From: Candidatus Bipolaricaulota bacterium
Lineage (GTDB): Bacteria > Bipolaricaulota > Bipolaricaulia > UBA7950 > UBA9294
DNA length: 36,604 nt
Assembly: GCA_003979035.1 (NCBI GenBank)
Contig: RXOA01000119.1
Coordinates: 1 to 36,604, forward strand
Reading direction: 5' to 3'
The translations under genes and the position numbers were made by a program. How positions within the stretch are numbered: the stretch's first letter is position 1; each line of letters opens with the position of its first letter. Under the pieces are notes generated by a model. The model saw nothing but the letters and a program-made list of their open reading frames with translations. It did not search any database and was not told where the DNA came from. Of the stretch, positions 2,646 to 18,229 are shown one piece after another.

Positions 2646-3671
2646 TCACTCGAAAAGCTCGAGGAGATAGCGTAGACCTTCCTTGACCGGACGAGGAGCC
2701 CTCAACGCATCTTCAAGCGCCACCGGAACAATGGCAGTGGCTTGGAGCGCAGTCATCACGTCGAACTGCCCGTCCTCTGCGAACTCGATCGCCGCTGCAC
2801 CGAACCGGCTCGCGAGGATCCGGTCAAACGGAGCGGGACTACCTCCTCGCTGCAGATAGGCAAGGTTGGTGACTCGAACCGGCATTTGCATCCGCTCCGA
2901 GAGGCGGTTGGCCACATACTGTCCGACGCCGCCAAGCCGCGCATGTCCGAACGCATCCACCTCCGCCTCGGCGACGACTTGACCGTGCGCGCTTGCCGGG
3001 ACAGCCCCTTCGGCAATGATGACGATGCTGAACCGTTTCTTAAGCCTCTCGCGTCGCTGGATCTTCGCGTAGACCGCGTCCATATCGAATTGGATCTCCG
3101 GAATGAGAATGACATCGGCGCCTCCGGCAATCCCGCCGTAGAGACTGAGCCAACCCGCATCACGACCCATGACTTCCAGGATCAGCACCCGATGGTGAGA
3201 TGCCGCCGTCGTGTGAAGCCGATCGAGCGCTTCGGAGACGACCTCAATCGCGGACCAGAAACCAAGAGAGTAATCGGTGAGGGCAATATCGTTGTCAATT
3301 GTCTGCGGAATGCCGATCGCCTCGACCCCATAAGGGGCCAAGCGATGCGCCACCCCCATCGTGTCGTCGCCGCCAATCGCAATCAAGAAATCGATCCCGT
3401 TCACGTCAAGCGTCTCCACGACCTGCTCCGGGCCGCCGTCAACGCGGAACGGATTCGTCCGCGAACTGCCGAGGATGGTTCCGCCAATGTGGAGAAGCCC
3501 CGACACATCGGCGACGGTCAGCGGCTGAACGAGGTTTTGCATCGGGCCTTTCCAGCCTTCGAGGAACCCCATCACCTCAATGCCCCGTTTCGCCCCGAAA
3601 CGCACAATCGAACGAAGCGCTGCATTGATCCCCGGGGAATCTCCTCCGCCCGTCAGTACACCAGCTCGCAT
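2646..3671 (-). CDS. pfkA: 6-phosphofructokinase, PfkA family (probably PPi-dependent; atypical motif)
   Basis: VLTGGGDSPGINA, GGTILGSSRTNP, IGGDDT, PQTIDND, EVMGRDAGW, QRGGSP; 341 aa. Confidence 0.92.
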   Translation of the reverse strand: MRAGVLTGGGDSPGINAALRSIVRFGAKRGIEVMGFLEGWKGPMQNLVQPLTVADVSGLLHIGGTILGSSRTNPFRVDGGPEQVVETLDVNGIDFLIAIGGDDTMGVAHRLAPYGVEAIGIPQTIDNDIALTDYSLGFWSAIEVVSEALDRLHTTAASHHRVLILEVMGRDAGWLSLYGGIAGGADVILIPEIQFDMDAVYAKIQRRERLKKRFSIVIIAEGAVPASAHGQVVAEAEVDAFGHARLGGVGQYVANRLSERMQMPVRVTNLAYLQRGGSPAPFDRILASRFGAAAIEFAEDGQFDVMTALQATAIVPVALEDALRAPRPVKEGLRYLLELFE

Positions 3672-3683
3672 CGTATCGCCCTC

Positions 3684-4676
3684 CTAGCCGTTCAGGGCCT
3701 GCCCGCCGCTTCCTGCCTGCTCCAGAAGCGCGCATGCAATCCGGCTGACGCCTTCCTGCACTGCTTTTCCGACCGCGCGCGGATCGAACGCCTTCTTGCT
3801 CGGACTCCACTCGCTCCCTGAGAATAAGTTGATGACATCGTCCTCGACGCCGGCCGGCGGCAGAATTTCGTGCTGGTGTTCGAGGTAGAACCGGCACGCG
3901 GCGCGACCATAGCCGTACTGGTAGTGTGTGTCCTTGTTCAGCTTCCGGATGCCGAAACGGATGACATCGTGGACCTGGTCCGCAAGGAGCCCTGACGAGC
4001 CGTGCAACACGAGTGGCACAAACATTCCCTCTTCGGCGAACCGATCCCGAATCGCGCCGGCAATATCCGTCCGCAGTTCAATGTTCCTTCCCTTGGAAAC
4101 CCCGTGCTGCGTTCCAATCGAAATCGCCAACAAGTCGGCGCCGGTGTCACGAATGAACTCCACCGCTTCTGCGGGATCCGTATAGAACGCTTCATCCGAC
4201 TGGATTTCGTCCTCAACGCCCTTAATCTTGCCGAGTTCCGCTTCGATCAGGATGCCGCTGCCGGACGCCAACTGCACGACGTCTCGACTGATGCGAACGT
4301 TCTCGTCAAAGCTTTCCTTCGAGGCATCGATCATGATGGAGGAAACCAGCCGTTCGTCGATCACCATCTCGATCAGGTCCATCTCGTCGTGTGTGAAATG
4401 GTCGAGATTGATGAACACGTTGATCGGAAACGCTTCCGCAAGCTCGTGCACAATCCCGCACAGTGTCCGCAGTCCGACGCGTTTGTCGCCGCTCCCCATG
4501 TACTTCGCCGCCCCGGGGCTGATCTGGACGACCAGATCCGATGTGGCATCGGCGTAGGTCTTCAGCAACGCAAGCAAGATCGTCGGCTCCGCGATATTGT
4601 TGGCCATGAACGCGAAGCCGTTCTTCTCCGCCTTCCGATACGCTTCGCGCAGGCTATCTCCTCCGGCAAATGGCAT
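3684..4676 (-). CDS. fba: Class II fructose-bisphosphate aldolase
   Basis: NLDH, IMIDAS, EAELG, GTQHG, LVLHGSSG, FDPR. Start placed at ATG 4676 (MPFAGG), preceded by GGAGGT; the upstream ATG 4718 lacks a comparable RBS. Confidence 0.9.
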   Translation of the reverse strand: MPFAGGDSLREAYRKAEKNGFAFMANNIAEPTILLALLKTYADATSDLVVQISPGAAKYMGSGDKRVGLRTLCGIVHELAEAFPINVFINLDHFTHDEMDLIEMVIDERLVSSIMIDASKESFDENVRISRDVVQLASGSGILIEAELGKIKGVEDEIQSDEAFYTDPAEAVEFIRDTGADLLAISIGTQHGVSKGRNIELRTDIAGAIRDRFAEEGMFVPLVLHGSSGLLADQVHDVIRFGIRKLNKDTHYQYGYGRAACRFYLEHQHEILPPAGVEDDVINLFSGSEWSPSKKAFDPRAVGKAVQEGVSRIACALLEQAGSGGQALNG

Positions 4677-4890
4677 CCCCCACCTCCGTGCGAAGATCCG
4701 GCCCTCCGCGCTGCTCATTCGAACAGCGGCAGTCTCCCGGACCCGTTCGCCATCCTCTCATCTCTCGAATGCGCCGATTCTTCCCGTACCCGCCGCGGCA
4801 GCCCAAGGTGCTCCGGCACAGGCGTGTCCTTACGCCATCCAACCGTGAATCGGACATCGTTGTCCTGTTCAATGAACGATCTGCCCTTGA

Positions 4891-5553
4891 TCATATCCAA
4901 CCGAGGTGCGAATCGTAGTCACTGACCAACAACCATCGGGGAGGCTCGTCTTCTTCGATGGTGGGGAAGCGCTTGGTATCTCCGACGAACTGGTTGTCGC
5001 CGACATCATCGTTGAACGTCGAGACTTCTCCCCCAATGACATCGCCTCCTTGGGCGCGGAAAGCATGGAACACTCCCGGCACGAGCGTCACGCTCTCGCC
5101 AGGACCAAGCATTAGCTCGCTACCCGAGGTCAGCACCTGCTTCATTCCATTGATGCAGAGTTGGATCTCGGAGGCGCCATCGGGGAACGCGCCAAGCGTC
5201 ACGATCAGCACACCCCCGCCACGATTGATGATGTCTTCAGTCTTGGCGTAGTGGGCGTGCAAAGGGGTACGTTGATCGCAACGAATCAGCATCAGCTTCT
5301 CCGCATACCCGGACGTGCCTATCCGTTTCATGTTGCGCAAGGTGAGAAGCACCAGTCCATCGGTGCGAAACCGACCCTTCCTCCATTCCGCCACGTCCCA
5401 TCCAAGGCGGGATTGCACAATCGGCAGCGCGGCCCGGCCCTGGTGCTCCCATTCCTCGCGGGACCAATCGGCAAATGGCGGCAACGCGATTCCCCTCGTC
5501 GCGAACAGGCACACTGTCTCCTCGATGATCGCATTGATTTGGGAGCGTCTCAT
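4891..5553 (-). CDS. D-lyxose/D-mannose ketol-isomerase family (cupin)
   Basis: MRRSQINAII start, LPPFA, LGWD, YAEK, TPLHAHYAKTEDIINRGGG, GEVSTFNDD, RFPTIEEDE. GGAGG upstream of ATG 5553. Confidence 0.9.
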   Translation of the reverse strand: MRRSQINAIIEETVCLFATRGIALPPFADWSREEWEHQGRAALPIVQSRLGWDVAEWRKGRFRTDGLVLLTLRNMKRIGTSGYAEKLMLIRCDQRTPLHAHYAKTEDIINRGGGVLIVTLGAFPDGASEIQLCINGMKQVLTSGSELMLGPGESVTLVPGVFHAFRAQGGDVIGGEVSTFNDDVGDNQFVGDTKRFPTIEEDEPPRWLLVSDYDSHLGWI

Positions 5554-5633
5554 TCTCGAAGGCTGCCTCCAACAGATGCAGACAGCGTACCGCGTACACA
5601 TCGCCGACGCCAGTTCGTCGCAAACCGGACAGG

Positions 5634-7142
5634 TCAGTAGGATTCCGCGTAGCGGCTCAACTCATGGCTGATGTGTCGCAATGCTGGATACAGCTCTTTG
5701 TACAATGAGAAGACTTGCTCGTACCGCCCCGTTGATTCACGCTCGGGTTCGATCCTTCCTTTGACCTTGATGGTAGCGGAACAAGCCTCATCCACGGAGG
5801 CCCAGATCCCGGCGCCGACGCCGGCAAGGAGTGCCGTCCCGTAGGCCGCACCTTCCAACGTGTTGACAAGCACGAGCTCTCTTCCCAGCACGTCGGACAG
5901 AATCTGTCTCCAGCAAGAGCTTCGCGCGCCCCCACCCGAGATGCGAATCTCGCACGTCTTGTCCACGCCGGCGGCCGACAGCAGTTCCAGTCCTTCACGG
6001 AGACCGAAGCTGACACCCTCCAAGACGGCCCGTGCAAGCGCGGCGCGATCGTGCCGAACCGTCAGGCCGACAAATGCTCCGCGAGCCCGTGCATCGGCGT
6101 ACGGGGTTCTCTCCCCGGTCAAGTAGGGAAGAAACAGCAGTCCGTTGCTTCCGACGGGAACGTGGGATGCCTCGCGCGTCAGGACGTCGAAGCTTTCGGT
6201 CGGAACCAACTCATCACGGAACCAGCGGAGACTGCCGGCGGCAGACAGCATCACGCCCATGAGATGCCAGCGACCGGGCACAGCGTGACAGAACGCATGC
6301 AGGCGTCCTCCCGGCTCAACGATTGGCCGATCCGTTGGAGCGAAGACAACGCCGGATGTCCCAAGCGTCATCGCCAATGTGCCCGCATGCGACGCACCGA
6401 CACCAATCGCCTGAGCCGCCTGGTCTCCGGCGCCCGCGAAGACGGGAGTTCCTGCAGGAATCCCGGTCCACTTAGCGGCTTCCGGCGTGATGTGACCAGT
6501 CACCTCCGGTCCCTCGTGTGTCGGGGGAAGCCATGATTTCTCGATTCCGAACGCGCCCAGGATCGCCGTCGCCCAGTCCCGCTTGGCAATGTCCAGAATC
6601 AAGGTGCCTGAAGCGCCAGCGCGGTCGGTGGCGAATCGTCCCGTAAGCCGGAATCGCACGTAGTCTTTAGGGAGCAGGATCTGAGCAATCCGCGCATACG
6701 CATCTGGTTCGTTCTCCTTCACCCAAAGCAGCTTGGGCAGCGTGAACCCCGCCATTGCGTCGTTGCCCGTCAGCGCGAGCAGTTCGCTCCTTCCGAACAC
6801 ATCACGGATCTCGTCGCACTGCTCCTCGGTCCGCTGATCGTTCCAGAGGATTGCCGGCCGTACAACACGATGAGACTTGTCCAGCAACGTGAGCCCGTGC
6901 ATCTGCCCGGTCAAACCTACGCCGATAATGTCCCGGCCGTCGATGGCCGCTTCCGTCAGGACACGGCGCATGCTACGCCACGTTCCGTTCCACCAGTCGT
7001 CTGGATTCTGCTCAACCCACAGTGGCCGTGGCATATCCCACGAGTGCTGGGTCAGAGCGGATCCGACGACATGGCCGCGCTCGTCAACCACGATCGCCTT
7101 GACCCCGGTGGTAGAGACGTCAATACCAACCACGTAGCTCAT
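5634..7142 (-). CDS. xylB: Xylulokinase (FGGY family)
   Basis: GIDVSTTGVK, LTGQMHG, RPAILWND, LLPKDY, GDQAA, LGTSGV, PYLTGERTP; adjacent to xylA. Confidence 0.93.
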   Translation of the reverse strand: MSYVVGIDVSTTGVKAIVVDERGHVVGSALTQHSWDMPRPLWVEQNPDDWWNGTWRSMRRVLTEAAIDGRDIIGVGLTGQMHGLTLLDKSHRVVRPAILWNDQRTEEQCDEIRDVFGRSELLALTGNDAMAGFTLPKLLWVKENEPDAYARIAQILLPKDYVRFRLTGRFATDRAGASGTLILDIAKRDWATAILGAFGIEKSWLPPTHEGPEVTGHITPEAAKWTGIPAGTPVFAGAGDQAAQAIGVGASHAGTLAMTLGTSGVVFAPTDRPIVEPGGRLHAFCHAVPGRWHLMGVMLSAAGSLRWFRDELVPTESFDVLTREASHVPVGSNGLLFLPYLTGERTPYADARARGAFVGLTVRHDRAALARAVLEGVSFGLREGLELLSAAGVDKTCEIRISGGGARSSCWRQILSDVLGRELVLVNTLEGAAYGTALLAGVGAGIWASVDEACSATIKVKGRIEPERESTGRYEQVFSLYKELYPALRHISHELSRYAESY

Positions 7143-7174
7143 TCGCCGTTCCCCTTTCCTTCTTGTCCAGATGA

Positions 7175-8344
7175 CTACCGAACTCCAAGAAGCAGTTCCA
7201 CGACCAACTGATCCAACTCCTCGTACGGCTGTCCCCGCAGGGCAAGGGCTGCACGATCGAAGCTGTGTTGCTTCAGACTCTCCGCCTTCTCGTCGGAATA
7301 TGTTCCCGTCCAGCGGGTGGTGTTTCCGTCATCCTCCGTGATCCGCGCAAGCAACGCCTGGATTCGCGTGTCGTCACGGAACGCGTCCGCTTTCTCCTTG
7401 AGGATCAGATAGGTCCGCATGCAACCCCGCGCAAACGCGCGCACGTCTTCAGCATCGGAGGTGCGCAGCGCGTGCGCGTCGAAGTGACGAGATCCGGAGT
7501 AACCCACGTCCTCCAGGAACTTCACCAAGAAGAACGCCTGCTTGACACTGTGGCAACCAAATCTCCAATCCTGATCGTAGCGTGGGCCATTTTGATCGTT
7601 GAGATCAATGTGGAACAGCTTCCCCGCATCCCAGGCTTGAGCGACAGCATGCATGAAATTCAGTCCCGCCATCTGCTCGTGCGCCACTTCCGGATTGACG
7701 CCAACCATCTCCGGATGGTCCAACGTAGAGATAAACCCGAGCATCGCGCCGGTCGTGGGGAGGTACAGGTCCCCTCGTGGTTCGTTCGGCTTGGCCTCGA
7801 GCGCGAAATTCATCCCGTACCCATGGCTGATGTTGTACTCGCATAGGAAGTTCAGGGCTTCTCGGAACCATCGCGATGCATCAAGCGGGTTCTTCCCTGC
7901 ATCCGTTTCCGTTCCCTCTCGTCCGCCCCAGAAGACGTAAACCTTGGCGCCAAGCTCAGCGCCGAGGTCTATCCCTCGCATTGCCTTCTGCAGCGCGTAG
8001 GCACGAACCTTCGGATCGTTGCTGGTGAACGCCCCATCTCGAAACACAGACTCGCTGTACAGGTCTGTCGTGGCCATCGGCACGCAGAGTCCTGTGTCTT
8101 CGAGCGCCCTCTTGAACGACGACACAATGCGCTCTCTCTCGCCGGATGTCGCGTCAATCGGGACAAGATCATTGTCGTGGAAGTTGACGCCGTATGCGCC
8201 AACATCGGCGAGCAGATGCACGATCTCAACTGGTGACAGCGCATCGCGCACGGGCTTCCCGAATGGATCTCTCCCCGTGTTTCCCACGGTCCACAAACCG
8301 AACGTGAACTTATGTTCCGGTCGCGGTTGATACCTGTCTGCCAT
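7175..8344 (-). CDS. xylA: Xylose isomerase, short class I (Streptomyces/Thermus-like) type
   Basis: [60 protein letters not shown] before ATG 8344. Confidence 0.95.
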
Positions 8345-8369
8345 GAGCATTCTCCTTGGTTGATTTCGG

Positions 8370-9566
8370 TTAGTACTGAATCGAGACTCGCTCGCCGCCG
8401 ACTGAAGAGGCGAGAATCGCGTCGCAAATCACTGCGCACTTGTAGCCGTCTTCGAAGGTGGCACCATACGGAGCCACGTCGGTATCGTTGGCGATCGAAT
8501 CCAACAGGTGATGGAGCGTATGGATGTGAGCATGCTCCCAGCCCAAATTGTGCCCGTGCGCCCACCACGCACTCATGTATGGGTGATTGCTTTCGGTGAC
8601 CGATACCGTACGGAATCCTTGTCCTTGCCCACGCTTGACATCGCAGATCTCCAATTCGTTCAGCCGCTCCAGGTTGAACCGCAGCGAACGCTTCGCGCCG
8701 TTGATCTCGAACGTGAGCCCGTTCTTGTGCCCACCGGCAAACCGTGTGGCTTCGTAGGTACCGATCGCGCCGTTCTCGAACCGAACAATCGCCTCGAATG
8801 CGTCATCAACATCCACAGGGACCACTTCTCCACCGCCGGGCTTGGTCCGCTGCTTGATGAATGTTTCCGTCGTGGCTGAAAGAGAAGCGGGCTCTCCGAC
8901 AAGGAATCGACTGAGATCGATGATGTGCGCCCCCAGATCACCGAGCGCACCCGACCCCGACACATCTCTGCTCAACCTCCAGACCCAAGGGAACCCCGGA
9001 TCCATGATCCATTCCTGAAGGTAGCGCGCGCGGAAGTGGTAGATTTCGCCGACTTCGCCGGCGTCGATCAATTCCTTCGCCAATCGCACCGCCGGGACGA
9101 ATCGATAGTTGAAGCTGCACAGGTGCTTCACGCCTGCGTCGCGAACCGCATTCCACATCCGCTTTGCTTCGCCAGCCGACCGCGCGAGCGGCTTCTCGCA
9201 TAGCACATGCTTGCCGGCCTTCGCAGCCTCGATACACGGCTCGGCGTGGAGGTTGTTGGGACCGCAGTTGTCAAGAAGCTCGATGGCCGGGTCGGCAATC
9301 AGCACGCGCCAGTCGCTTGTTGCTCGCCCATACTCGTACCGTCGTGCCGCTTCTTCCGCTGCTTCCTGTGGGACACCGCAAATACCGACAAGTTTCGCCT
9401 TCGCCGCCGGCGGCCAGAAGATGTACGGAATCTTTTTGTACGCGTTGGTGTGGGCCTTTCCCATGAACCCATACCCCAGCATTCCTACACCAATCTCCCT
9501 CCAGGAAGCATCTGACGCACCTGTTCCCTTCGAAAGGCTAACAAAGCCCACTTCCTTCTCTGTCAT
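8370..9566 (-). CDS. Gfo/Idh/MocA NAD-dependent sugar oxidoreductase (levoglucosan-dehydrogenase-like subfamily)
   Basis: [53 protein letters not shown] before ATG 9566. Confidence 0.9.
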
Positions 9567-9578
9567 GACACCTCCGGG

Positions 9579-9611
9579 AAACCGGTGCTGGGATAGAGCT
9601 CCCAGCACCGG
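9579..9611 (-). terminator. Intra-operon hairpin (weak terminator or mRNA stabiliser)
   Basis: 12-bp perfect stem CCGGTGCTGGGA (9582-9593) / TCCCAGCACCGG (9600-9611), followed on the minus strand by TTT. Confidence 0.65.
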
Positions 9612-9622
9612 CCGATTCGCTA

Positions 9623-10591
9623 CTAGCTACGATCAAACCACAATGCCGCAGGCTCTTCCCGAATGATGACACCATTGAGGAACCCCGCAGCTTTGTTCAA
9701 ACCCTCTTCAAGCGACATCTGATGATCCTCGTGCTCAATGCTGATCACGCCGTCGTACCCGATCTCCTTGAGGGTCCAGATGAACGCCCTCCAGAATTCC
9801 TCACCGTGTCCGTATCCGACTGTCTTGAAGTTCCAGCCACGACCTTCCGCACTGAGGTTCTTGGTCTCGAGAACTCCGAAACGCTCCGCAACACCCTTCT
9901 CTACGGCGCTATCCTTGGCATGGACGTGGAAGATGCACTCGCGAAGCTCGCGTGCCGCAAGGCAAGGGTCCATCCCTTGCCAGAAGAGGTGACTGGGATC
10001 GAAGTTCGATCCGATGGCCGGTCCCACCGCCTCCCGAAGCTTGAGAAGCCGCTCTGGATTGAACACTGCATCGCCAGGATGCATCTCTAGCGCGATCTTC
10101 TCCACGCCGCACTTCTTCGCATGCTTGGCAATCTCTTTCCAGGTTGGGATCAACTTTTCTTCCCACTGCCATTTCAACAGATCCGCGTAGTAGTCCGGCC
10201 ACGAACAGGTGACCCAATTGGGGCACTTCGCATCCTCGCTGTCTCCAGGGCAGCCTGCGAAGCCAACGACACAGTCCACACCGAGCTCGCCGCAAAGCTG
10301 CAATGCTTCTTTGAAATCCCGGGTATGCTGTTCCGAGATGCTCTTGTCCGGGTGAACAACGTTCCCATGGCAGCTCAAGGCACTAATCTCAACTCCGCGA
10401 CCTGCGATCAGTGACTTGAGCGCCTTCAGCTTTGACGGATCTGCAAGAAGCGCTCCAGGATCGCAATGTATCTTCGGGATGAACCCTCCTGTTCCCAGCT
10501 CGATCATGTCGAGGCTCAGATTGGAGAGAGCATTCAGTGCTTCCTCTAGAGAGCGGTCTGCGTACACTACCGTGAAGCAACCTAGTTTCAT
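9623..10591 (-). CDS. Sugar phosphate isomerase/epimerase, xylose-isomerase-like TIM barrel (keto-sugar hydratase/epimerase candidate)
   Basis: IELGTGG, ISALSCHGN, GCPGDS, PNWVTCSWP, WQWEE, LEMHPG, NFDPSHLFWQG, HVHAKD, SIEHED; 322 aa. Confidence 0.88.
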   Translation of the reverse strand: MKLGCFTVVYADRSLEEALNALSNLSLDMIELGTGGFIPKIHCDPGALLADPSKLKALKSLIAGRGVEISALSCHGNVVHPDKSISEQHTRDFKEALQLCGELGVDCVVGFAGCPGDSEDAKCPNWVTCSWPDYYADLLKWQWEEKLIPTWKEIAKHAKKCGVEKIALEMHPGDAVFNPERLLKLREAVGPAIGSNFDPSHLFWQGMDPCLAARELRECIFHVHAKDSAVEKGVAERFGVLETKNLSAEGRGWNFKTVGYGHGEEFWRAFIWTLKEIGYDGVISIEHEDHQMSLEEGLNKAAGFLNGVIIREEPAALWFDRS

Positions 10592-10637
10592 TCTTCTGCC
10601 CCTTTCGTGTTGTATGTCCTCATCCAGATACCGTCGC

Positions 10638-11795
10638 TTAGCCTAGCGAGACCCATTCCCTGGTTTCCGCTGACTTCTGGATCGCGTCGCAAAGCATGTT
10701 GATCCTGAGCCCATCGCGGAAATTCGGATTCGCACTGCCGTCATTCTGAATCGCCTTCACCATCTCATACATCTGGACAGCGAACGTCTCACCGAACCCA
10801 ATCCCCATTCCTTGGATCGGCCACAGGGCCTCGCCGTAGGGATGATCAAATCCTCCCGTGAGAACCCGTGTGAATCCGCTGCGTTCATTCGGTGTATCGA
10901 AGGTAGAAAGAAGAACCTCGTTGGGGCGTTCCCAGTCGAAGAACACCGCGCCCTTCATTCCGTAGACCTCGAAATCGAAGTGGTTCTTCTTCCCCGAGGC
11001 CAGCCTGCTTGCCACAAGACTGCCTTGCGCGCCGTTCTCGAACTGCAGCAAGACATCGCAAATATCGTCGACGTCAACTTTCCCCATCTTGACAGCTCCG
11101 CCCTCCGCCTTGTGCCCCAGCCCCCCAGCTCCGATCGGACGCTCAGTAATGTGTGTGGAAAGCAGTCCTGCCACCTGAGAGATTTCGCCGACAAGGAATC
11201 GAGACATGTCAAGTACATGGGAGCCGAGATCCCCCAAGCTCCCGCTGCCTGCGATCTCCTTTCTGAAGCGCCAGCTCAACGCGCCAGTTGCGTCGAGACC
11301 CCAGTCCTGGACGAACGATCCTCGGAAGCCTACGATTTTTCCAAGTCGCCCTTCATCGATCCATCGCTTGATCAGCTGAACCGCAGGTGCTTTTCGGTAG
11401 TTGAATCCGATCCCGTGCTTCACCCCAGACCGCTCTGCGGCGTCGGCAATCTCTTTGGCTTCGGCGGCAGTCCGTGCAAGCGGCTTCTCACAGAAGATGT
11501 GTTTCCCGTTGGCGATCGTCTCCAGAGCGATCTCCCTGTGCATGTCATTCGGCACGCAAACGAAAACCAGATCAATCTGATCGCTGGAGACAAGCTTCCT
11601 CCAATCGTCGGTCCACTCTGGGATCGCCAATCGCTCTGCCGTTTCCCTCGCAAGCGAAGCATCCCTCTCCGCAATCATCCGCAGGTGGACGTCCTTCGTC
11701 TCTGCTGCGAAGAAAGTCTTCATCATGTGGTACCCGACGGTATGCGTTCTTCCGATGAGCCCCCCACCAACGATTCCGATGTTCACTCGTGCCAT
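10638..11795 (-). CDS. Gfo/Idh/MocA oxidoreductase resembling levoglucosan dehydrogenase
   Basis: CEKPLART, FNYRKAPAV, QDW, LSWRFRKEIAGSGSLGD, VDVDD, HPYGEALWPIQGMGIGFGET. RBS AAGGAG before ATG 11795. Confidence 0.9.
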   Translation of the reverse strand: MARVNIGIVGGGLIGRTHTVGYHMMKTFFAAETKDVHLRMIAERDASLARETAERLAIPEWTDDWRKLVSSDQIDLVFVCVPNDMHREIALETIANGKHIFCEKPLARTAAEAKEIADAAERSGVKHGIGFNYRKAPAVQLIKRWIDEGRLGKIVGFRGSFVQDWGLDATGALSWRFRKEIAGSGSLGDLGSHVLDMSRFLVGEISQVAGLLSTHITERPIGAGGLGHKAEGGAVKMGKVDVDDICDVLLQFENGAQGSLVASRLASGKKNHFDFEVYGMKGAVFFDWERPNEVLLSTFDTPNERSGFTRVLTGGFDHPYGEALWPIQGMGIGFGETFAVQMYEMVKAIQNDGSANPNFRDGLRINMLCDAIQKSAETREWVSLG

Positions 11796-11867
11796 GCTCT
11801 CTCCTTTCTGTGCTCCAGGTTGCCGATCCTCGTGCTTTGCTTTGTGCCGCATCTCATGCAAGGCTCT

Positions 11868-12845
11868 CTAGCTTTGGATCCCTCGCAAACGATTGATGAC
11901 GACTGCTGTAAGAATCAGCAGCCCGTTCGCGAACTGGATGTAGTACCCTCCGATATTGGCAAGGACAAGGCCGTTTCGAATGACTCCGATGATCAGAACA
12001 CCGAGGACGGTTCCCAAGACCGTTCCGATTCCACCGTTCAGGCTGGTCCCCCCAATGATGACTGCCGCAATGATGGCCATCTCGTATCCAGATGCGATCG
12101 ATGGCTGTGCCACCCCGAGTCGAGCAATCAGCAGGACACCCCCAAGCGCACCCAACGCGCCTGCCAAGACGTACGTAAGCAACGTGACCTTCGCCGTCTG
12201 AACACCCGAGTAGCGGCTGGCAACCTCGTTTCCTCCAGTCGCATACAGCTGATAGCCAAACACCGTGTACCGCTGGATGAGATGAATCACGATGGCCACA
12301 GCCAGAAAGAAGACAATCGGGACGGGGACGACGCCACCGATCAACCCCTGTCCCAATGCCGTGAACGAGGAAGGAAGGTTCACGACAGGCAGTCCTTTCG
12401 TGATCATGAATGCAACCCCGCGCACGACGCTCATCATTCCGAGCGTCGTAATGATCGGTCCCAGTCGAATGCGAGTGATGATCAACCCGTTAACCAAACC
12501 GATGCCCATGCCTGCAACAATGGCGATGAGAACCGCCGGGAAAACGGGGACGCCACTCACCATAAGCAACGATACAAGGATCCCTGATAGCGCCATGTTC
12601 GACGCGATCGAGAGATCCAACCCTCCTGTGATCATGACAAGCATCATCCCGAGTGCGGCGATCCCTTCGAAAGAAACAGCCCTGAGAATGCTGAAGATGT
12701 TCCCCATTGAGAGGAAGTTCTTGGCCAGGAACGACAACGCGATCACGAGTACGATCAACGCCATCAGAACGCCAGTCTCCCGCCCTCGGAAGACCCGGAG
12801 TAGCGCTTTCTTGCTCGAGTTGGCCATCGATTGTCTCTTACTCAT
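11868..12845 (-). CDS. Monosaccharide ABC transporter permease (RbsC-like)
   Basis: Multi-TM protein with ITGGLDLS, IITTLG, YATGGNEVASRYSG, IAAVIIGGTSL. ATG 12845 overlaps the ATPase stop; 12827 is an alternative start. Confidence 0.92.
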   Translation of the reverse strand: MSKRQSMANSSKKALLRVFRGRETGVLMALIVLVIALSFLAKNFLSMGNIFSILRAVSFEGIAALGMMLVMITGGLDLSIASNMALSGILVSLLMVSGVPVFPAVLIAIVAGMGIGLVNGLIITRIRLGPIITTLGMMSVVRGVAFMITKGLPVVNLPSSFTALGQGLIGGVVPVPIVFFLAVAIVIHLIQRYTVFGYQLYATGGNEVASRYSGVQTAKVTLLTYVLAGALGALGGVLLIARLGVAQPSIASGYEMAIIAAVIIGGTSLNGGIGTVLGTVLGVLIIGVIRNGLVLANIGGYYIQFANGLLILTAVVINRLRGIQS

Positions 12846-14382
12846 CGCCCCTAGCCTCCTCACGGACTCCGTTTCCCGCACTGCCTCCGGTATTCACTGC
12901 GCCTGTGATTGCATGCATGATTTCCTCTTGCGTAACCGCATCCGATTCGTACTCCCCTGTGATCCTGCCCTTGTACATCGTGATGATTCTGTTGCTAACC
13001 GATATCAACTCGGGCAGCTCACAAGATGTCATGACGCATGCCTTGCCTTCTCCTACAAGGTCGCGAAGGATGCCATGGATCTCGGACTTCGCGCCCACAT
13101 CGACTCCGCGCGTAGGATCATCCAACAGAAGCAGATGCGGATTGGTTACGAGCCATTTTGCCAGGACAACCTTCTGCTGATTCCCTCCGCTCAAGTAGTT
13201 CACAGCTTGCCAGGGTGAGTGAGATCGGATAGAGAGCATTTTGATCACTCTCTCACCAAGTTTTCGGATCGCATTGCGTTGTATGATCCGCTTCCTGCTG
13301 AGCGTGCGCAGAATGGTGATCGCCGTGTTCTCAGCCACCGATTGAATGAGGTTCAACCCCTCAACATGACGATCCACAGGGACATAGCCCAGGCCCGCCC
13401 CAATCGCATCTTTCGGCGTCCGGATCTCCATTTTCTTGCCGTCAATCAGCACAGTTCCCCGAACCTCGGATTCGAGACCGAAGAGGCCTTTCATGAGGTC
13501 GCTTGCGCCAGATCCCTGAAGGCCAGCAAGACCCAGGATCTCGCCCGGATAGACGGAAAGGGAGACGTCGGTGACCTTGTCGGAAACAGAGAAGCCGTCA
13601 ACTGCCAGTACCGGCTCAGTGTCAGCACTTCTCACGGGTGTTACTCTCTCGAACGCCTGCACATCATGGCCTGCCATCAGGGTGGCAACACGGGCAGGAG
13701 TGACCTCTTCGATGCTGCCGGTGAAAACATTGCTGCCGTCTCTTAGGATGGTGATCCGACTGGCAATTCGGAATACCTCATCGAGTTTGTGGGACACATA
13801 AACCACAGTGATATTCTGCTCTCGGAGCTTTGCAATGAGATCGAAGAAACTCTCCAGTTCCTGCAAAGCCAGAGCAGATGTGGGTTCATCCATAATGATG
13901 AGTTCGACGTTCATTGCTACGGCCTTGCAGATCTCCACGACTTGTCGTTCACCGATGGAGAGTCTGCTGAGCAGCTCATCAGGCTCTCTTTCCAAGCCGA
14001 ATTGCCTAAGAAGTGCCCTTGCTCTCTGATTCCGCTCTCCCCACATGAGAGGCCTCAGAGTTGTCTTCGAAAGCTCCGAAAGGTAGATGTTCTGCGCGAC
14101 TGTGAGGTTTGAGCACTGAGGGAAGTGCTGATGCACAACACCCACTCCTAGATTTCGAGCATCCAGCGGACTCCGGATGTCCGTGGCTTCCCCTTTCCAC
14201 AGGATCTCTCCATCATCTTTGCTCTCAATGCCAGCACATACCTTGATCAGTGTCGACTTGCCGGCTCCGTTCTCACCCACAAGAGCGTGGACACTGCCCG
14301 CCTCAACACCGAAGCTCACTCCCTTGAGTGCTTGCACCCCTGGGAATGTCTTCACGACGCCCTGTACTTCAAGTAGGTTCAC
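12838..14382 (-). CDS. Monosaccharide ABC transporter ATP-binding protein, two domains (RbsA-like)
   Basis: GENGAGKST, LSIGERQ, MDEPT, LSGGNQQK, DDPTRGVDVGAK. Confidence 0.95.
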   Translation of the reverse strand: MNLLEVQGVVKTFPGVQALKGVSFGVEAGSVHALVGENGAGKSTLIKVCAGIESKDDGEILWKGEATDIRSPLDARNLGVGVVHQHFPQCSNLTVAQNIYLSELSKTTLRPLMWGERNQRARALLRQFGLEREPDELLSRLSIGERQVVEICKAVAMNVELIIMDEPTSALALQELESFFDLIAKLREQNITVVYVSHKLDEVFRIASRITILRDGSNVFTGSIEEVTPARVATLMAGHDVQAFERVTPVRSADTEPVLAVDGFSVSDKVTDVSLSVYPGEILGLAGLQGSGASDLMKGLFGLESEVRGTVLIDGKKMEIRTPKDAIGAGLGYVPVDRHVEGLNLIQSVAENTAITILRTLSRKRIIQRNAIRKLGERVIKMLSIRSHSPWQAVNYLSGGNQQKVVLAKWLVTNPHLLLLDDPTRGVDVGAKSEIHGILRDLVGEGKACVMTSCELPELISVSNRIITMYKGRITGEYESDAVTQEEIMHAITGAVNTGGSAGNGVREEARGDE

Positions 14383-14442
14383 GTTGCCATCCTAGCCGCC
14401 CTTGGGAGCTTGCCCATCATTTCCTCTGCCCTTAGGAGATAG

Positions 14443-14475
14443 GGAGGCTTCCCCCGGTCGAAAGGAGAAGCCTCC
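14443..14475 (-). terminator. Stem-loop after the binding-protein gene
   Basis: GGAGGCTTC (14443-14451) / GAAGCCTCC (14467-14475). This position is typical of hairpins that raise binding-protein mRNA over permease mRNA. Confidence 0.6.
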
Positions 14476-14496
14476 TCCGCTGGAACAAGAGCTAAG

Positions 14497-15483
14497 CTAT
14501 CCTTCCCATTCCGCCATCAAGTCGCGATAGTCGGAGACGCTGATGCTGTCGCCGCCCCCATCCGAAGTGATGATATCCATGCCTGAACTCAGCATCGTAA
14601 TCGGGTTCTCAGCGAGGTAGCCAGCAAGCGCAGGCGTCCTCAGGAGCGAGAACAGCATATTCACGCTGCCGTAGCCCATCTCGTAGAAGCGTTGTCCGAT
14701 GCATGCTTTGAGGATCCCCGCTTCGACATACTGAAGCGCGTTTTCAAGGGGATCCACGCCCACGCACAGCAACTCGCCATTCTGGACTCGTTCGTTCACG
14801 GTTGGCATCGAGCCCACATTCCCCCACCAGGGGAACCCGGTCGTTGTCGCCAAGCCGTCGATTTCGGGATTCGCCGCGATGTAGTTCTCCACAGCATCGA
14901 CTGCAAGTCCGATTTCGAGCGCTGTCGTGGTGAAGCGAGTGACGACTTCGATATTCGGGTATCCCGCAAACGTGTCCAGCATCCCTTCATATCGCGCGTC
15001 AAGGTTCGGGTGTCCGACGTAAACCTGGAAGATCGCAACCTTCCCTTCTCCACCCATCGCCTCGGCAAGCTGTGAAGCAACGAGCTGTCCGAGCTCGAAG
15101 TCAGGTGTTCCGTAATAGATAAGCCTCGGGCTGTCCGGGCAATCCGAATCCCAGGTCACTACGGGGATGCCCTTCTCCGCGGCCTGAACAAGGATCGGCC
15201 GCATCGCATCGGCACTGCTCACCGATACGGCAATCGCATCCACTCCGCGATTCAAGAGGTCCTCGACGACTCGAGCAGCCTCATAGCCCTCGTCGGAGAC
15301 CGGGCCCGTATAAATCAGGTCGATCCCAAGTTCTGCGGCTGCTGCCTCAGCGCCTGCCTTCGTCGCGAAGAACACAGGATTATCGAGCGCCTTCGGGACA
15401 ACCGCAATCTCGATATCCGCAGCCGCAGCCAAGATCCCCAAAGACATGATGCACAGCAGAACAACTCCAAGAGTCTTTCTCAT
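14497..15483 (-). CDS. Sugar ABC transporter substrate-binding protein (type 1 periplasmic binding fold)
   Basis: Signal peptide MRKTLGVVLLCIMSLGILAAAA with no lipobox; VPKALDNPVF, GVDAIAVS, GIPVVTWDSD, GQRFYEMGY. RBS GGAGG before ATG 15483. Confidence 0.92.
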   Translation of the reverse strand: MRKTLGVVLLCIMSLGILAAAADIEIAVVPKALDNPVFFATKAGAEAAAAELGIDLIYTGPVSDEGYEAARVVEDLLNRGVDAIAVSVSSADAMRPILVQAAEKGIPVVTWDSDCPDSPRLIYYGTPDFELGQLVASQLAEAMGGEGKVAIFQVYVGHPNLDARYEGMLDTFAGYPNIEVVTRFTTTALEIGLAVDAVENYIAANPEIDGLATTTGFPWWGNVGSMPTVNERVQNGELLCVGVDPLENALQYVEAGILKACIGQRFYEMGYGSVNMLFSLLRTPALAGYLAENPITMLSSGMDIITSDGGGDSISVSDYRDLMAEWEG

Positions 15484-15619
15484 CAAGTTCCCTCCTAGGT
15501 ATGCCCAATGCAAGTTGATGACCTTATTCCATCTCCTCTTCGTCGATGAACACTTCCATCTTCCTGCAACCACCTCCCTTGCTAGTGGAAAGGCAAGTCT
15601 GTACTCACAAGATCCATCC

Positions 15620-16624
15620 CTATGTCATTGGCGCACAACATGATTCCCGAATCATCAGTTCACACGGCAGCACAACTTGTTCGGCCTTGGACTCTCCTCT
15701 GGCAATCCGTTTCAGCAGAAGACCCATCGCCGTATAGCCCATCCTGTATTGATCCTGTGCAACAACGCTCAATGCCGGATTCCAGGATCGCGCCCATCCT
15801 GGGTCATCGAATCCCATGACCGACACATCCTCGGGGCACCTGAGCTTCGTCTCTTGCAGGTTCTTCAGGGCACCAAGGACCATGAGATTGTTGGTGGCGA
15901 AGACTGCTGTTGCCGGTTCGACTTGTTCCATCAGGTGGCGCATGGCTTCGAAGGCTCCCTCAACTTTAAGGCCCGCCTCCCAGATCAATCCATCATCGCA
16001 GGTAAGTCCAGCCGCCTCGTGGGCCTGCCTCCAACCACGGAGCCTATCGCGGAAGGTCGCGATGCCCTCCATCTCAACGATGATTCCGATTCTCGTGTGC
16101 CCAAGACTGATGAGATACTCAGTTGCCTGTCTCGCGCCTTCAATATTGTCGGAATACACTTGGTCAATCGGGAAATCGTCGAAGGGGCGATCTATCGCTA
16201 CAAAAGGAACTCCGCGATTCCGAAGTCGCCGCAACGTGCTTGCGGCAGCAGCAGATGGCGCGATTAGGAAGCCATCCACTCTTCGCTCAAGCATCAGTGA
16301 GACGCTGAGATTCTCCCTCTCAGGATCTTCATCCGTGTTACACAGAATGAGGCTATAGCCGCGCTCCCGTGCACAGTCTTCTGCTCCCCTTACAACGCCG
16401 GGGAAGAACGGGTTCGCGATGTCAGAGACCAAGACGGCGATTGTCTCCGACAGCCCTGTTCTCAGCCCTCTGGCGCGTTGATCCGGCTTGTAGTCCAGCT
16501 CGTCAATGGCCTGGCGTACACGCTGTGCCAGCTCTTCGCTGACATATCGTGTGTCATTGAGAACATGAGATACCGTAGTAATGGAAACGGCCGCCTTCTC
16601 AGCGACTTCACGCATCGTTGCCAA
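15620..16624 (-). CDS. LacI-family transcriptional regulator (paralogue 1), TTG start
   Basis: ATMREVAEKAAVSITTVSHVLN HTH, ARGLR hinge, NPFF, GFDD. TTG 16624 follows GGAGG and aligns with the Met of paralogue 2. Confidence 0.93.
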   Translation of the reverse strand: MATMREVAEKAAVSITTVSHVLNDTRYVSEELAQRVRQAIDELDYKPDQRARGLRTGLSETIAVLVSDIANPFFPGVVRGAEDCARERGYSLILCNTDEDPERENLSVSLMLERRVDGFLIAPSAAAASTLRRLRNRGVPFVAIDRPFDDFPIDQVYSDNIEGARQATEYLISLGHTRIGIIVEMEGIATFRDRLRGWRQAHEAAGLTCDDGLIWEAGLKVEGAFEAMRHLMEQVEPATAVFATNNLMVLGALKNLQETKLRCPEDVSVMGFDDPGWARSWNPALSVVAQDQYRMGYTAMGLLLKRIARGESKAEQVVLPCELMIRESCCAPMT

Positions 16625-16662
16625 TAAGAACCTCCAGCCCGCCAGCCGCAAAGACAAGGTTA

Positions 16663-16710
16663 GGAAACCTTTGCGCAAACCTTAGCGCGAACGTTTGCGC
16701 AACCGTTTGC
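16663..16710. promoter_or_regulatory. Four abutting 12-bp LacI-type operators, consensus GCAAACGTTTGC
   Basis: GGAAACCTTTGC (16663), GCAAACCTTAGC (16675), GCGAACGTTTGC (16687), GCAACCGTTTGC (16699). Confidence 0.8.
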
Positions 16711-16738
16711 TTATAGCGCGAAAACTATGGAAAGTCAA
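16710..16738 (-). promoter_or_regulatory. Sigma70-type promoter of the sugar operon
   Basis: Minus strand TTGACT (16738-16733), 17-nt spacer, TATAAG (16715-16710), directly against the operator array. Confidence 0.8.
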
Positions 16739-16952
16739 GTCCTAGGACAAACGTCAGCTGGATCAGCAAGCGCCACTCCGGCACAGAAAGCGTTCTCGGA
16801 ATGGGACTTCGGGAAGGCAGCGTGAAGCCGATCACGAACGGCCTGCTTGACTACAGATCGAATTCCTCGCCCCTGCTGCATGCAAGGCCAATCTCAGCCT
16901 TGTCAAGTCGGGAGTTGGGCACGCGCTACTGGCTGTAAAGAGACGCCCAGAG

Positions 16953-17975
16953 TCAATCCAGGGAGAGCGGTGAGTCCGCGGCAGGCTGGCCGGTGGATTC
17001 CCGAATGCGAAGCTCGCAGAGGAGACAGATGGTCTTCGGGGGCGACGTGTCGCCCTTGATCCGCTCCAACAGCAGCTCGGTTGCCTTGTACCCCATCTCG
17101 TAGGGCTGCTGCGCAACTGACGTGATTGCCGGTGAGAAGGCACTTGCCCAGTCAGGATCGTCGAAGCCGATGACTGAAACCATTTGTGGGCAGCTGATTC
17201 CAGCATCTTTCAAGTATCGGAAGACTCCCAGCGTCATCAGGTTGTTCGTGCTGAAGATGGCGGAAACAGGATCACTCCCGGAGAGAAGCCGTTTCGCCGC
17301 AGCATAGGCACCCTCGACTTCAAGACCCGCCTGCCTGAGATCGCCAGTGTGTGGAGAAAGCCCCCCCTGCGCAAGCGCCTTCTTCCATCCGACGACTCGC
17401 GACCGAAAGCTGGGGATGTCTGCAATCTCCGCGACAATGCCGATTCGAGTGTGGCCAAGGTCGATCAAATGTTTCGTTGCCTCGTAGGCACCTCGTTCGT
17501 TCTCTGAGTAAACCTGATCCACAGGCAGGTCATCCGGACGGTCGATCAGAACCACGGGCGTACCATGACGGATGAGGTTCTCCAAAGCGTCGCTATCGCC
17601 AATTGATGGGGCGACGATGAATCCATCGACCCGACGCTCCAGCATCGTGGATAAGTTGACTCGTTCGGTCTCTGCGCTTTCGTCGGTGTTCGACAGAAGC
17701 ACACTATAGCCACTCTCCCGCGCGCAATCCTCGATGCCACGAACAACCTTAGGAAAGAACGGGTTGGAAATGTCCGAGACCAGGGCGGCAAGCGTCTCGG
17801 TGGAACCCGTTCGCAGACTCCTAGCACGCTGATCCGGACGGTACTCCAGCTTCCGGATTGCCTGACTGACGCGATCCGCGAGTTCCTCACTGACAAACCG
17901 TGTCTGGTTGATTACATGCGATACTGTCGTGATTGAAACACCCGCATACTCTGCGACTTCCCGCATCGTAGCCAT
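16953..17975 (-). CDS. LacI-family transcriptional regulator (paralogue 2)
   Basis: MATMREVAEYAGVSITTVSHVIN HTH, ARSLR hinge, NPFF, GFDD. Confidence 0.93.
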   Translation of the reverse strand: MATMREVAEYAGVSITTVSHVINQTRFVSEELADRVSQAIRKLEYRPDQRARSLRTGSTETLAALVSDISNPFFPKVVRGIEDCARESGYSVLLSNTDESAETERVNLSTMLERRVDGFIVAPSIGDSDALENLIRHGTPVVLIDRPDDLPVDQVYSENERGAYEATKHLIDLGHTRIGIVAEIADIPSFRSRVVGWKKALAQGGLSPHTGDLRQAGLEVEGAYAAAKRLLSGSDPVSAIFSTNNLMTLGVFRYLKDAGISCPQMVSVIGFDDPDWASAFSPAITSVAQQPYEMGYKATELLLERIKGDTSPPKTICLLCELRIRESTGQPAADSPLSLD

Positions 17976-18229
17976 ACTCGATTCCACCTTCGCGTGGCTG
18001 CAACTTGTTTGCGTCGAACCCTACAATCGAGACAGCTTAGATCCGGACCGGGATCTGCAAGCGACCCGCCCAATCCGGCGAGCTTCCATCAACAAGGTGA
18101 TTGCCACACGACCATCCCGGCTCATTCCAGGATAGGCCCAGGACTTGATTCATTGTCTGCAAGTGGTCCTTTCATCTCTTCAGGCAAAGAACCCTCCTAC
18201 AAGCTGAGAAGCGACCATCTCTTGCCCAA

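Follow-up and report, generated by a model that had tools for sequence, protein, structure and literature searches.

A putative hydrolase-free sugar operon in a Bipolaricaulota bacterium points to a possible pentose version of the levoglucosan-type route

Described 3-keto routes and the Bipolaricaulota operon

In Escherichia coli, YcjQ, YcjR, and YcjS epimerize 3-keto-glucosides by means of two dehydrogenases and a xylose-isomerase-like barrel, YcjQ being a zinc alcohol dehydrogenase and not a Gfo protein, and the disaccharides of Bacteroides are a further case of cleavage by way of 3-keto-sugars. Non-hydrolytic 3-keto cleavage has been worked out only for glucose-configured substrates, these being levoglucosan and the O- and C-glucosides of PMC10628242. 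The levoglucosan (Lgd) pathway is described from Bacillus smithii S-2701M and Paenarthrobacter (PMC7676230; PMC10066097), and a 3-keto-glucoside route from Agrobacterium tumefaciens, with the eliminase AtOGE, the hydratase AtHYD (PDB ID: 8ro4), and a putative Gfo oxidoreductase (PMC10628242). Here, we describe a gene run from an uncultured sediment Candidatus Bipolaricaulota bacterium (contig RXOA01000119.1, assembly GCA_003979035.1), in which oxidoreductases and a TIM barrel reminiscent of these systems stand beside genes for a xylose isomerase, a xylulokinase, and a lyxose isomerase family member. By "window" is meant the whole stretch of 36,604 nucleotides that was analyzed.

We read the run, most plausibly, as an operon under LacI control for the breakdown of a sugar derivative of monosaccharide size, which would be opened without a hydrolase. 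More specifically, we put it at somewhat under an even chance that C3 oxidation, elimination/hydration, and re-reduction release xylose and lyxose, which would then be led to xylulose 5-phosphate. While gene content, protein families, mosaic history, and synteny were read from the DNA itself, all of the catalytic steps are ones that we infer, and the pentose product is suggested by synteny only. In its make-up and presumed working, the operon resembles the 3-keto routes of the Lgd type and of Agrobacterium, yet it lies outside the equivalog of levoglucosan dehydrogenase (LGDH, or LgdA) and is joined to pentose enzymes.

Naming by Pfam and NCBIfam, with 30 open reading frames (ORFs) of the window scanned, recovered all ten genes of the minus-strand run that a first-pass annotation had proposed, and its view of an operon with no glycoside hydrolase also held, as no glycoside hydrolase family matched any of the 30 ORFs. 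Beyond that list, there is a second LacI gene (16953-17987), and genes for an aldolase and a phosphofructokinase lie directly downstream. The run itself is uninterrupted, comprising LacI2, LacI1, a CUT2 importer, GfoA, the barrel, GfoB, XylA, XylB, and LyxI; from LacI1 to LyxI, neighboring genes overlap or stand 6 to 114 bases apart (14 bases between the barrel and GfoB, and 19 between GfoB and XylA). LyxI is followed by a 172-base gap and then by the class II aldolase and phosphofructokinase genes.

16953-17987, minus strand: LacI2, LacI-family repressor (PF00356 and Peripla_BP_3)
16672-16713, no strand: operator-like half-palindromic sites, three in tandem, immediately 5' of LacI1
15620-16678, minus strand: LacI1, LacI-family repressor of the inserted cassette (PF00356 and Peripla_BP_3)
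14497-15573, minus strand: CUT2-type solute-binding protein, Peripla_BP_4 (PF13407, 193 bits)
12838-14382, minus strand: ATPase of the CUT2 ATP-binding cassette (ABC) importer, two fused nucleotide-binding domains (two PF00005 stretches)
11868-12881, minus strand: CUT2 ABC permease (PF02653)
10638-11861, minus strand: GfoA, NAD-dependent Gfo/Idh/MocA oxidoreductase, proposed C3 dehydrogenase (NF052479, 437 bits)
9623-10591, minus strand: xylose-isomerase-like TIM barrel of the LgdB2 family, proposed eliminase/hydratase (PF01261)
8370-9608, minus strand: GfoB, second LGDH-like Gfo oxidoreductase, proposed 3-keto-aldose reductase (NF052479, 382 bits)
7175-8350, minus strand: XylA, class I (Arthrobacter-type) xylose isomerase (TIGR02631, 559 bits)
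5634-7142, minus strand: XylB, xylulokinase of the FGGY family (TIGR01312, 568 bits)
4891-5601, minus strand: LyxI, cupin of the D-lyxose/D-mannose isomerase family (PF07385, 240 bits)
3684-4718, minus strand: class II fructose-bisphosphate aldolase, downstream neighbor of LyxI
2646-3671, minus strand: phosphofructokinase, downstream neighbor after the aldolase

Like YcjQRS, the operon combines a Gfo dehydrogenase, a xylose-isomerase-like barrel, and a second dehydrogenase that would act via 3-keto intermediates; it differs in that the window barrel is related to hydratases. With the Lgd pathway (PMC7676230; PMC10066097), it shares a LacI repressor, a CUT2-type importer, an LGDH-clade Gfo protein, an LgdB2-family barrel of about 322 residues, a second Gfo protein for re-reduction, and the lack of a hydrolase. 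In contrast, GfoA is 45-47% identical to LGDHs and under the model cut-off, LgdB1 is missing, the second Gfo is an LGDH-like paralog and not of the LgdC type, and the binding protein is unrelated in detail. Moreover, XylA, XylB, and LyxI are attached in the window, but in no lgd-type cluster examined. As in the Agrobacterium route (PMC10628242), a likely hydratase stands beside a Gfo oxidoreductase; the barrel found in relatives at this position (TIM') is an AtHYD homolog, and the window barrel has the same fold (template-modeling (TM) scores of 0.77-0.83). Here, the differences are that the window barrel is 28% identical to TIM' over the full length (with motifs in common) and gives 32 bits to AtHYD, that the downstream enzymes are pentose enzymes, and that neither an AtOGE-type eliminase nor a periplasmic flavin oxidase is present in the operon. 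Disaccharide 3-dehydrogenase systems of the ThuAB type (PMC4765114) come into view through Bacillales, in which GfoB-like genes lie directly beside ThuA-family genes, so that the wider GfoB group is probably of the ThuB-like 3-dehydrogenase kind, as judged from this adjacency. Unlike ThuAB, no ThuA was found in the window's genome, and the window importer is CUT2, whereas that of one Bacillales ThuA locus (L128; L and G numbers are our handles for loci and genomes) is CUT1.

The two oxidoreductases and the barrel

For both GfoA and GfoB, the best NCBIfam model is NF052479, the LGDH equivalog with a cut-off of 650 bits, and the best PDB match is the LGDH of Pseudarthrobacter (PDB ID: 6a3f; 375 bits for GfoA and 326 bits for GfoB, which also gave 313 bits with 4h3v). 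Both proteins are therefore LGDH-like, as first annotated, and the motifs named at that time for the protein at 10638-11795 are truly common with 6a3f in our alignment and motif table. Scanning 401 Bacillales genomes with NF052479 revealed three score classes, these being proteins over the cut-off in 23 genomes (670-761 bits), a few at 593-647 bits, and a large separate class at 410-460 bits. GfoA and GfoB are 45-47% and 43-47% identical, respectively, to the model-positive Bacillales LGDHs, and neither attains the more than 60% identity to characterized LgdA that serves as the LgdA criterion in PMC10066097, the characterized proteins being compared through 6a3f only. An assignment of GfoA as an LGDH ortholog was ruled out by its 437 bits against the cut-off of 650. 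In LGDH, Glu103 (E103) and His193 (H193) have been proposed as catalytic (Kaur et al., PMC10066097), and in the alignment with 6a3f, their counterparts in GfoA are E125 (the Glu of EKP) and H215, the numbering being mapped by our own offset and the comparison covering just these two residues and the motifs. GfoB also retains the EKP and the His. The C-terminal motif HPYGE..WPI..GIG.GE is common to GfoA, true LGDH, and the variant paralogs described below, while it is missing from GfoB, GfoB-like, and LgdC-position proteins. The GfoA start is probably at 11795, rather than at the called 11861.

GfoA and GfoB are 38% identical to each other, and the LgdC-position genes are 30-32% identical to GfoA. 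Two of three trees grouped GfoA and its metagenomic orthologs with LGDH and the variant paralogs, the support being 84 by the Shimodaira-Hasegawa-like approximate likelihood ratio test (SH-aLRT) in the first quick tree, and an ultrafast bootstrap of 74 with an SH-aLRT of 99 in the careful tree. Because the grouping was missed in one tree, the placement is probable and not firm, and we regard GfoA as probably belonging with the true levoglucosan dehydrogenases. GfoB falls outside the GfoA/LGDH group, and of the pair only GfoA is placed with LGDH. In a correction to the first-pass annotation, the two are not equivalent, as GfoB orthologs in relatives adjoin a different hydratase-like barrel and xylA/xylB. 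The GfoB-like group was not monophyletic in the careful tree and is not one function; GfoB-like genes at 41-47% identity occur in varied contexts. Inositol catabolism, which had been named as an alternative, was ruled out by the IolG model (137 bits for GfoA and 117 for GfoB against a TIGR04380 cut-off of 355), and the barrel as IolE likewise fell short (38 bits against a TIGR04379 cut-off of 290).

The barrel (322 residues, PF01261) is from a family with more than 7,400 matches, which are typically 50-60% identical across phyla. Over an alignment of 27 sequences with a mean column identity of 70%, the invariant Glu, Asp, and His columns include E169, D198, H224, and E286, among others, and these presumably fit a metal site of the PF01261 type. 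LgdB2 itself, a 3-ketoglucose dehydratase and 2-hydroxy-3-keto-glucal hydratase, depends on Mn for both activities. To place the barrel, nine Bacillales loci that score high with the LGDH model were examined over 20 kb each; six of these carry an over-cut-off LGDH (about 747-761 bits), with three being variant clusters (L120, L121, and L122). Eight of the nine, six of them with a true LGDH, hold a barrel of 323-338 residues that is 45-49% identical to the one in the window. The usual lgd-type order is LacI, a barrel of 269-275 residues, binding protein, LGDH, ATPase, permease, a 392-residue Gfo, and the long barrel, which in the eight clusters follows either LgdC or transporter genes. Since these sizes match those published for LgdB1 (30 kDa, about 275 residues), LgdC (43 kDa), and LgdB2 (36 kDa, about 325 residues) (PMC7676230; PMC10066097), we assign the long barrel as LgdB2, by size and position and not against the B. 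smithii sequence. By this relationship, the window barrel appears to be a member of the LgdB2 hydratase/eliminase family, and is a proposed 3-keto-sugar eliminase as well as 2-hydroxy-3-keto-glycal hydratase. Its AlphaFold (AF2) model has a predicted local distance difference test score (pLDDT) of 93.8, and the closest folds are SCO6571 (PDB ID: 2zds; TM 0.80-0.83) and AtHYD (8ro4; TM 0.77-0.79). By sequence, it gave 78 bits with 2zds and 32 with 8ro4, and this is a related fold in a separate sequence family. Identity and fold together bear out the original annotation of a barrel of the 3-keto-sugar kind.

That there is a single barrel where the Lgd route has two, as had also been pointed out, is real and fits the bifunctionality of LgdB2, which eliminates and hydrates, and which can in part stand in for LgdB1 in vitro (PMC7676230). 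In that work, Kuritani et al. still obtained glucose from levoglucosan in vitro, though at a lower level, with a set of three enzymes that lacked LgdB1, and a one-barrel layout would be workable because LgdB2 does both steps. Nonetheless, a true levoglucosan operon was ruled out, as GfoA scores under the LGDH cut-off, LgdB1 is missing, and the binding protein differs.

Among the lgd-type loci, the variant clusters L120, L121, and L122 (Bacillales genomes G088, G348, and G180) have an LgdB1-like barrel and a CUT2 transporter with no LgdC-type gene. L120 has two LGDH-clade paralogs, which score 672 and 625 bits; L121 likewise has two, of 647 and 603 bits, along with an LgdB2-like barrel, and L122 combines a single paralog of 593 bits with such a barrel. 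These clusters may serve another anhydro-sugar. LgdB2-like barrels are otherwise widespread, with many copies in metagenome-assembled genomes (MAGs) of gut and rumen Clostridia (L004-L083), and the common pairing of barrel and 363-residue Gfo sometimes comes with ThuA or a second barrel. At three loci, in Aerophobetes (L007), Terriglobia (L073), and Armatimonadia (L024) MAGs, an LgdB2-like barrel and a GfoB-like gene adjoin an FGGY kinase, which in L007 and L073 is 50% identical to the window XylB (601 bits to TIGR01312 for L007); a xylose isomerase was not seen on these stretches by tblastn with a class I XylA query.

Mosaic history and conservation of the operon

In 60 relatives, GfoA has no close ortholog, the best identity being 41%, and a search at an E value of 1e-60 gave GfoA matches in eight of 61 genomes, the window's own (G000) included. 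Vertical inheritance of the trio of GfoA, barrel, and GfoB was thereby ruled out. GfoB, on the other hand, has orthologs of 64-86% identity, and at the six such loci examined, XylA is adjacent in five and TIM' in four. In the same-genus genome, the order is MalK, SBP'-ATPase'-permease' (a different CUT2 system with its own solute-binding protein, SBP'), LacI2 (76%), TIM', GfoB (86%), and XylA (88%), at which the contig ends; another contig carries XylB (80%), LyxI (69%), aldolase, and phosphofructokinase. Four same-family genomes have LacI2-TIM'-GfoB-XylA-XylB or parts of it, and a fifth has GfoB alone. TIM' is a clear SCO6571/AtHYD homolog (375 bits to 2zds and 171 bits to 8ro4), and SBP' of this older module (L224 3809-4813) resembles ribose-binding proteins (247 bits to 4joq and 108 bits to RbsB).

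The metagenome contig L145 runs ATPase'-permease'-LacI2 and then LacI1-SBP-ATPase-permease-GfoA-barrel-GfoB-XylA-XylB, with the cassette exactly between LacI2 and GfoB. From this contig and the gene orders of relatives, the cassette of LacI1, ABC importer, GfoA, and LgdB2-like barrel occupies the position of TIM'. Thus, the operon is a mosaic, in which an older TIM'-GfoB-XylA-XylB(-LyxI) unit received the LacI1-ABC-GfoA-barrel cassette, which displaced TIM' and, in the window, the older transporter as well. The cassette also occurs alone, with 59-65% identity and with neither GfoB nor xyl genes, in L160, L161, L163, and L164. In one of the same-family genomes (G574, L237 2584-3456), an IS200-type transposase is found in place of TIM' before GfoB, and in one metagenome copy (L156 13104-13787), an rve integrase follows LyxI; both are signs of a mobile or rearranging region.

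Scanning metagenomes with the barrel yielded 80 loci, 17 of these with at least 76% barrel identity, though some are near-duplicates from sister samples (e.g., L153/L154) and so not 17 independent cases. The run GfoA-barrel-GfoB-XylA-XylB is present in 11 of the 17 contigs, with the remaining six cut off but consistent. In the most distant copies (L157/L158), identities are 72% for GfoA, 76% for the barrel, 67% for GfoB, and 47-49% for XylB. Because the flanks of distant copies are unrelated genes, we take the unit to run from LacI to LyxI. Positions 4500-18000 are also covered by a contig of a different study, which has 460 differences. The recurrence of the core run, the short gaps, and an operator-like motif at the 5' end only argue for a single transcription unit, and the core arrangement is more than chance. 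As to the synteny check that had been suggested, the xylA/xylB link is conserved, and it predates the trio, but the exact trio is not general, being confined to the one lineage where the insertion of the cassette formed it.

XylA and XylB pass their equivalog cut-offs (559 against 447 bits for TIGR02631 and 568 against 380 bits for TIGR01312). LyxI, with 240 bits to PF07385, 168 bits to 3kmh, and 210 bits to NF051472 (under its cut-off of 350), is by these matches assigned to the D-lyxose/D-mannose isomerase family. Over ten contigs where its placement is readable, LyxI follows XylB in seven and lies upstream of LacI in one, and it is also in the same-genus genome that lacks GfoA. Aldolase and phosphofructokinase follow LyxI only in the window, L144, and the same-genus genome; they are neighbors that probably do not belong to the unit, more distant copies having unrelated genes there.

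Away from this lineage, the Bacillales loci L124, L125, L127, and L128 have GfoB-like genes (43-48% identical) directly beside ThuA-family genes. L124 reads as a GH43 (glycoside hydrolase family 43) xylosidase, ThuA, Gfo, LgdB2-like barrel, and GfoB-like gene, and L128 has a CUT1 transporter context. In L125 and L127, an aldose 1-epimerase, a ROK-family gene (XylR-like by position), a class II XylA, and XylB are near the GfoB-like gene, and this is a second, independent link of this Gfo group to xylose genes. A further GfoB-like gene (44% identical), in L249 of the same phylum (G466), is at the end of an unlike cluster, with LacI, a dihydrodipicolinate synthase (DHDPS)/neuraminate-lyase-family gene, a CUT1 transporter, a BNR sialidase-like gene, and a fucose-isomerase-like gene, and is possibly sialic-acid related.

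With regard to the importer, the best PDB relatives of the binding protein are monosaccharide binders (at most 117 bits), and residue 31, a Met, is the start of a probable signal peptide. The best NCBIfam models of the ATPase are GguA, RbsA, and AraG, all under cut-off, and identity to the Bacillales lgd-type clusters is 38-40% for the ATPase and 33-38% for the permease. LacI1 and LacI2 are 57% identical. LacI2 is the repressor in common with the GfoA-less operons of relatives, its identity to the LacI that precedes TIM' being 76% in the same-genus genome and 57-60% in the same-family genomes. For LacI1, the hidden Markov model matches begin at residue 19-21, and so its true start is probably downstream of 16678; the operator-like sites overlap the mechanically called TTG start. 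An idealized palindrome matches three times at 16672-16713 and nowhere else in the window, but the pattern was derived from this very region, which biases the shuffle statistic and makes the result descriptive. In its degenerate form, GCGCRAMCSTTWGC, the motif matches in nine of 253 loci. Eight of these are members of this operon family with the match at their 5' end, among them the GfoA-less same-genus operon, where it precedes SBP' (L224 3522-3535; other positions include L145 3922-3935 and L153 3792-3815); in the ninth, L162, it falls at or just inside that contig's LacI gene. The motif is a candidate binding site for LacI1/LacI2. Six short exact metatranscriptome contigs (4789-4987, 14924-15138, 16064-16214, 17290-17479, 9270-9420, and 14871-15021), from two libraries of the likely source study, cover the end of LyxI, GfoB, the binding protein, and both LacI genes; these are a hint of expression, as DNA carry-over is possible and such pieces cannot show a transcript or its extent. 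Scans of the window for sigma-70 promoters (0 promoter-like sites) and terminators (9 terminator-like sites against 13.7 expected) gave nothing usable.

Around the operon, a MalK-type ABC ATPase (18230-19378, minus strand) lies just upstream of LacI2, with a transketolase (19568-21739, plus strand) divergent from it. MalK and LacI2 are also neighbors in the same-genus genome (87% and 76% identity, respectively), where an ORF of 645 residues upstream of MalK on the opposite strand may, by position, be a transketolase. The far end of the window (34132-36600, minus strand) cuts through the gene of a large protein that combines PKD repeats with a caspase domain (Peptidase_C14).

Proposed pathway, alternatives, and meaning

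In the pathway that we favor, the CUT2 system would import a sugar derivative, for which an anhydro-pentose (e.g., a hemicellulose pyrolysis product) or a small xyloside are candidates. GfoA would oxidize its C3 hydroxyl with NAD+, and the LgdB2-family barrel would then carry out beta-elimination of the C1 substituent and hydration of the resulting 2-hydroxy-3-keto-glycal. Using the NADH from the GfoA step, GfoB would reduce the 3-keto-aldose, which would make the overall process redox-neutral. The free aldose would be isomerized by XylA, and any C2 epimer by the lyxose isomerase, both to D-xylulose, which XylB would phosphorylate to D-xylulose 5-phosphate. The scheme of C3 oxidation, elimination/hydration, and 3-keto reduction is suggested because each of the three core enzymes comes from a family in which such chemistry is known, and the handing of the aldose to XylA/XylB because a hydratase-type barrel and GfoB are kept beside XylA-XylB in two architectures, while a pentose product is favored mainly because XylB is present. 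A further proposal, which we hold to be possible yet rather doubtful, is that enone hydration yields both C2 epimers, so that XylA and LyxI would stand side by side in a pentose version of the levoglucosan/3-keto-glucoside route that starts from an anhydro-pentose or small pentoside, with LyxI serving as C2-epimer salvage.

Several observations speak against a pentose-yielding pathway of this kind. Class I xylose isomerase and lyxose isomerases act also on glucose and mannose, and the characterized relatives of the core enzymes act on glucose rings. Both GfoA (437 bits) and GfoB (382 bits) miss the LGDH cut-off of 650, the GfoA-LGDH grouping is absent from the second quick tree and has a bootstrap of just 74 in the careful one, and the binding protein aligns only in part with its counterpart in lgd-type clusters, at 26-27% identity. 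The operon lacks an LgdB1 eliminase, and a search of the genome, which is 71% complete, gave no other LgdB1-like match than a fragment of 119 residues with 30% identity at a contig edge; in PMC10066097, 253 of 265 true lgdA genes have LgdB1 nearby. The product of the cassette need not be a pentose, because the cassette occurs without GfoB and xyl genes. Across 80 genome loci of the LgdB2-like family, there was no XylA neighbor (class I query, E value of 1e-20, 60% coverage), and the usual partner, following the barrel in 42 of the 80, is a 363-residue Gfo of another subfamily. Finally, 0 of 16 GfoB-like genes at greater distance in the same phylum are near xylA/xylB, so that the pentose link comes from one orthologous lineage and two Bacillales loci.

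One alternative, to our minds unlikely, is a hexose route, by which levoglucosan, mannosan, or a small gluco- or mannoside (e.g., a compatible solute) would give glucose and mannose. XylA would then be a glucose isomerase and LyxI a mannose isomerase, with fructose phosphorylated elsewhere and entering glycolysis by the adjacent phosphofructokinase and aldolase. Consistent with this, the characterized LgdA, LgdB2, and LgdC (PMC7676230) and AtHYD (from the title of 8ro4) handle glucose-configured rings, GfoA has the LGDH C-terminal motif, and the cassette stands without xyl genes in four contigs. Phosphofructokinase and aldolase do come after LyxI in the window, L144, and the same-genus genome, though this adjacency is lost in more distant copies. 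The window's genome gave three PfkB-family matches and no glucokinase of the ROK or Glk type, but that absence is weak evidence, since the genome is 71% complete and ROK kinases are in five of five relatives searched. Moreover, the binding protein is unlike that of lgd-type clusters, and XylB, a clear xylulokinase equivalog (568 against 380 bits) that is conserved in the unit and in GfoA-less relatives, would have no role in a hexose route.

Less probable again is an epimerization without bond cleavage, in the manner of YcjQRS, in which C3 of a rare or common pentose (such as L-arabinose, D-ribose, or D-arabinose) would be oxidized, whereupon the barrel would invert C2 or C4 and the second Gfo would re-reduce the product to xylose or lyxose. 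One barrel flanked by two Gfo enzymes of different clades would fit oxidation and re-reduction with an altered stereochemical outcome, and two C2-epimeric aldose isomerases lie downstream; in addition, CUT2 importers typically carry free monosaccharides (by best matches), the older TIM'-GfoB-XylA-XylB module has the ribose-binding-protein-like SBP' (4joq 247 bits, RbsB 108 bits), and LgdB1 is missing. Yet the identified relatives of the barrel are hydratases/eliminases (LgdB2 by position and AtHYD by fold, with YcjR not compared by sequence), no NCBIfam match names the window barrel as a YcjR-type epimerase, and the closest characterized relative of GfoA acts on an anhydro-sugar. As the least probable of the readings weighed, the joint could be an accident of insertion between unrelated neighbors, with xylA-xylB-lyxI used for plain xylose or lyxose, and the Gfo and barrel genes for an inositol-like cyclitol, a 3-keto-sugar from the surroundings, or some other substrate. 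The operon is, after all, a demonstrable mosaic with two LacI genes, its cassette exists alone elsewhere (L160-L164), GfoB-like genes at 41-47% identity are in quite different contexts, and some copies have an IS200 transposase or an integrase at their flanks. Against an accident, GfoB keeps its place in two architectures, with a hydratase-type barrel on one side (14 bases) and XylA on the other (19 bases), the inserted barrel replaces a related hydratase-family barrel rather than adding to it, and the joint is retained in copies diverged to 67-76% identity; furthermore, within the operon, the operator-like motif is confined to the 5' end, and inositol models are far under cut-off.

Returning to the release of xylose and lyxose by 3-keto cleavage, the operon points to an undescribed pentose version of a levoglucosan-type route. 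A full-text search for 3-keto-xylose, 3-keto-xyloside, and 3-keto-xylobiose found no paper, with most subscription journals outside its coverage, and no paper was found for "2-hydroxy-3-keto-glucal" with "hydratase". To our knowledge, the natural role of D-lyxose isomerases is unclear. If the operon does yield xylose and lyxose, 3-keto cleavage chemistry would be extended to pentoses, a physiological reason would be at hand for D-lyxose isomerases, and a sediment sink for hemicellulose-derived anhydro-sugars or small xylosides would be suggested. The interchangeability of LgdB2 and LgdB3 has been raised from their mutually exclusive distribution (PMC10066097). In this respect, the mosaic is a natural experiment, which argues that LgdB2-like and AtHYD-like barrels are interchangeable, and should the pentose product prove true, the swap of an AtHYD-like for an LgdB2-like barrel would show that both families do the same job.

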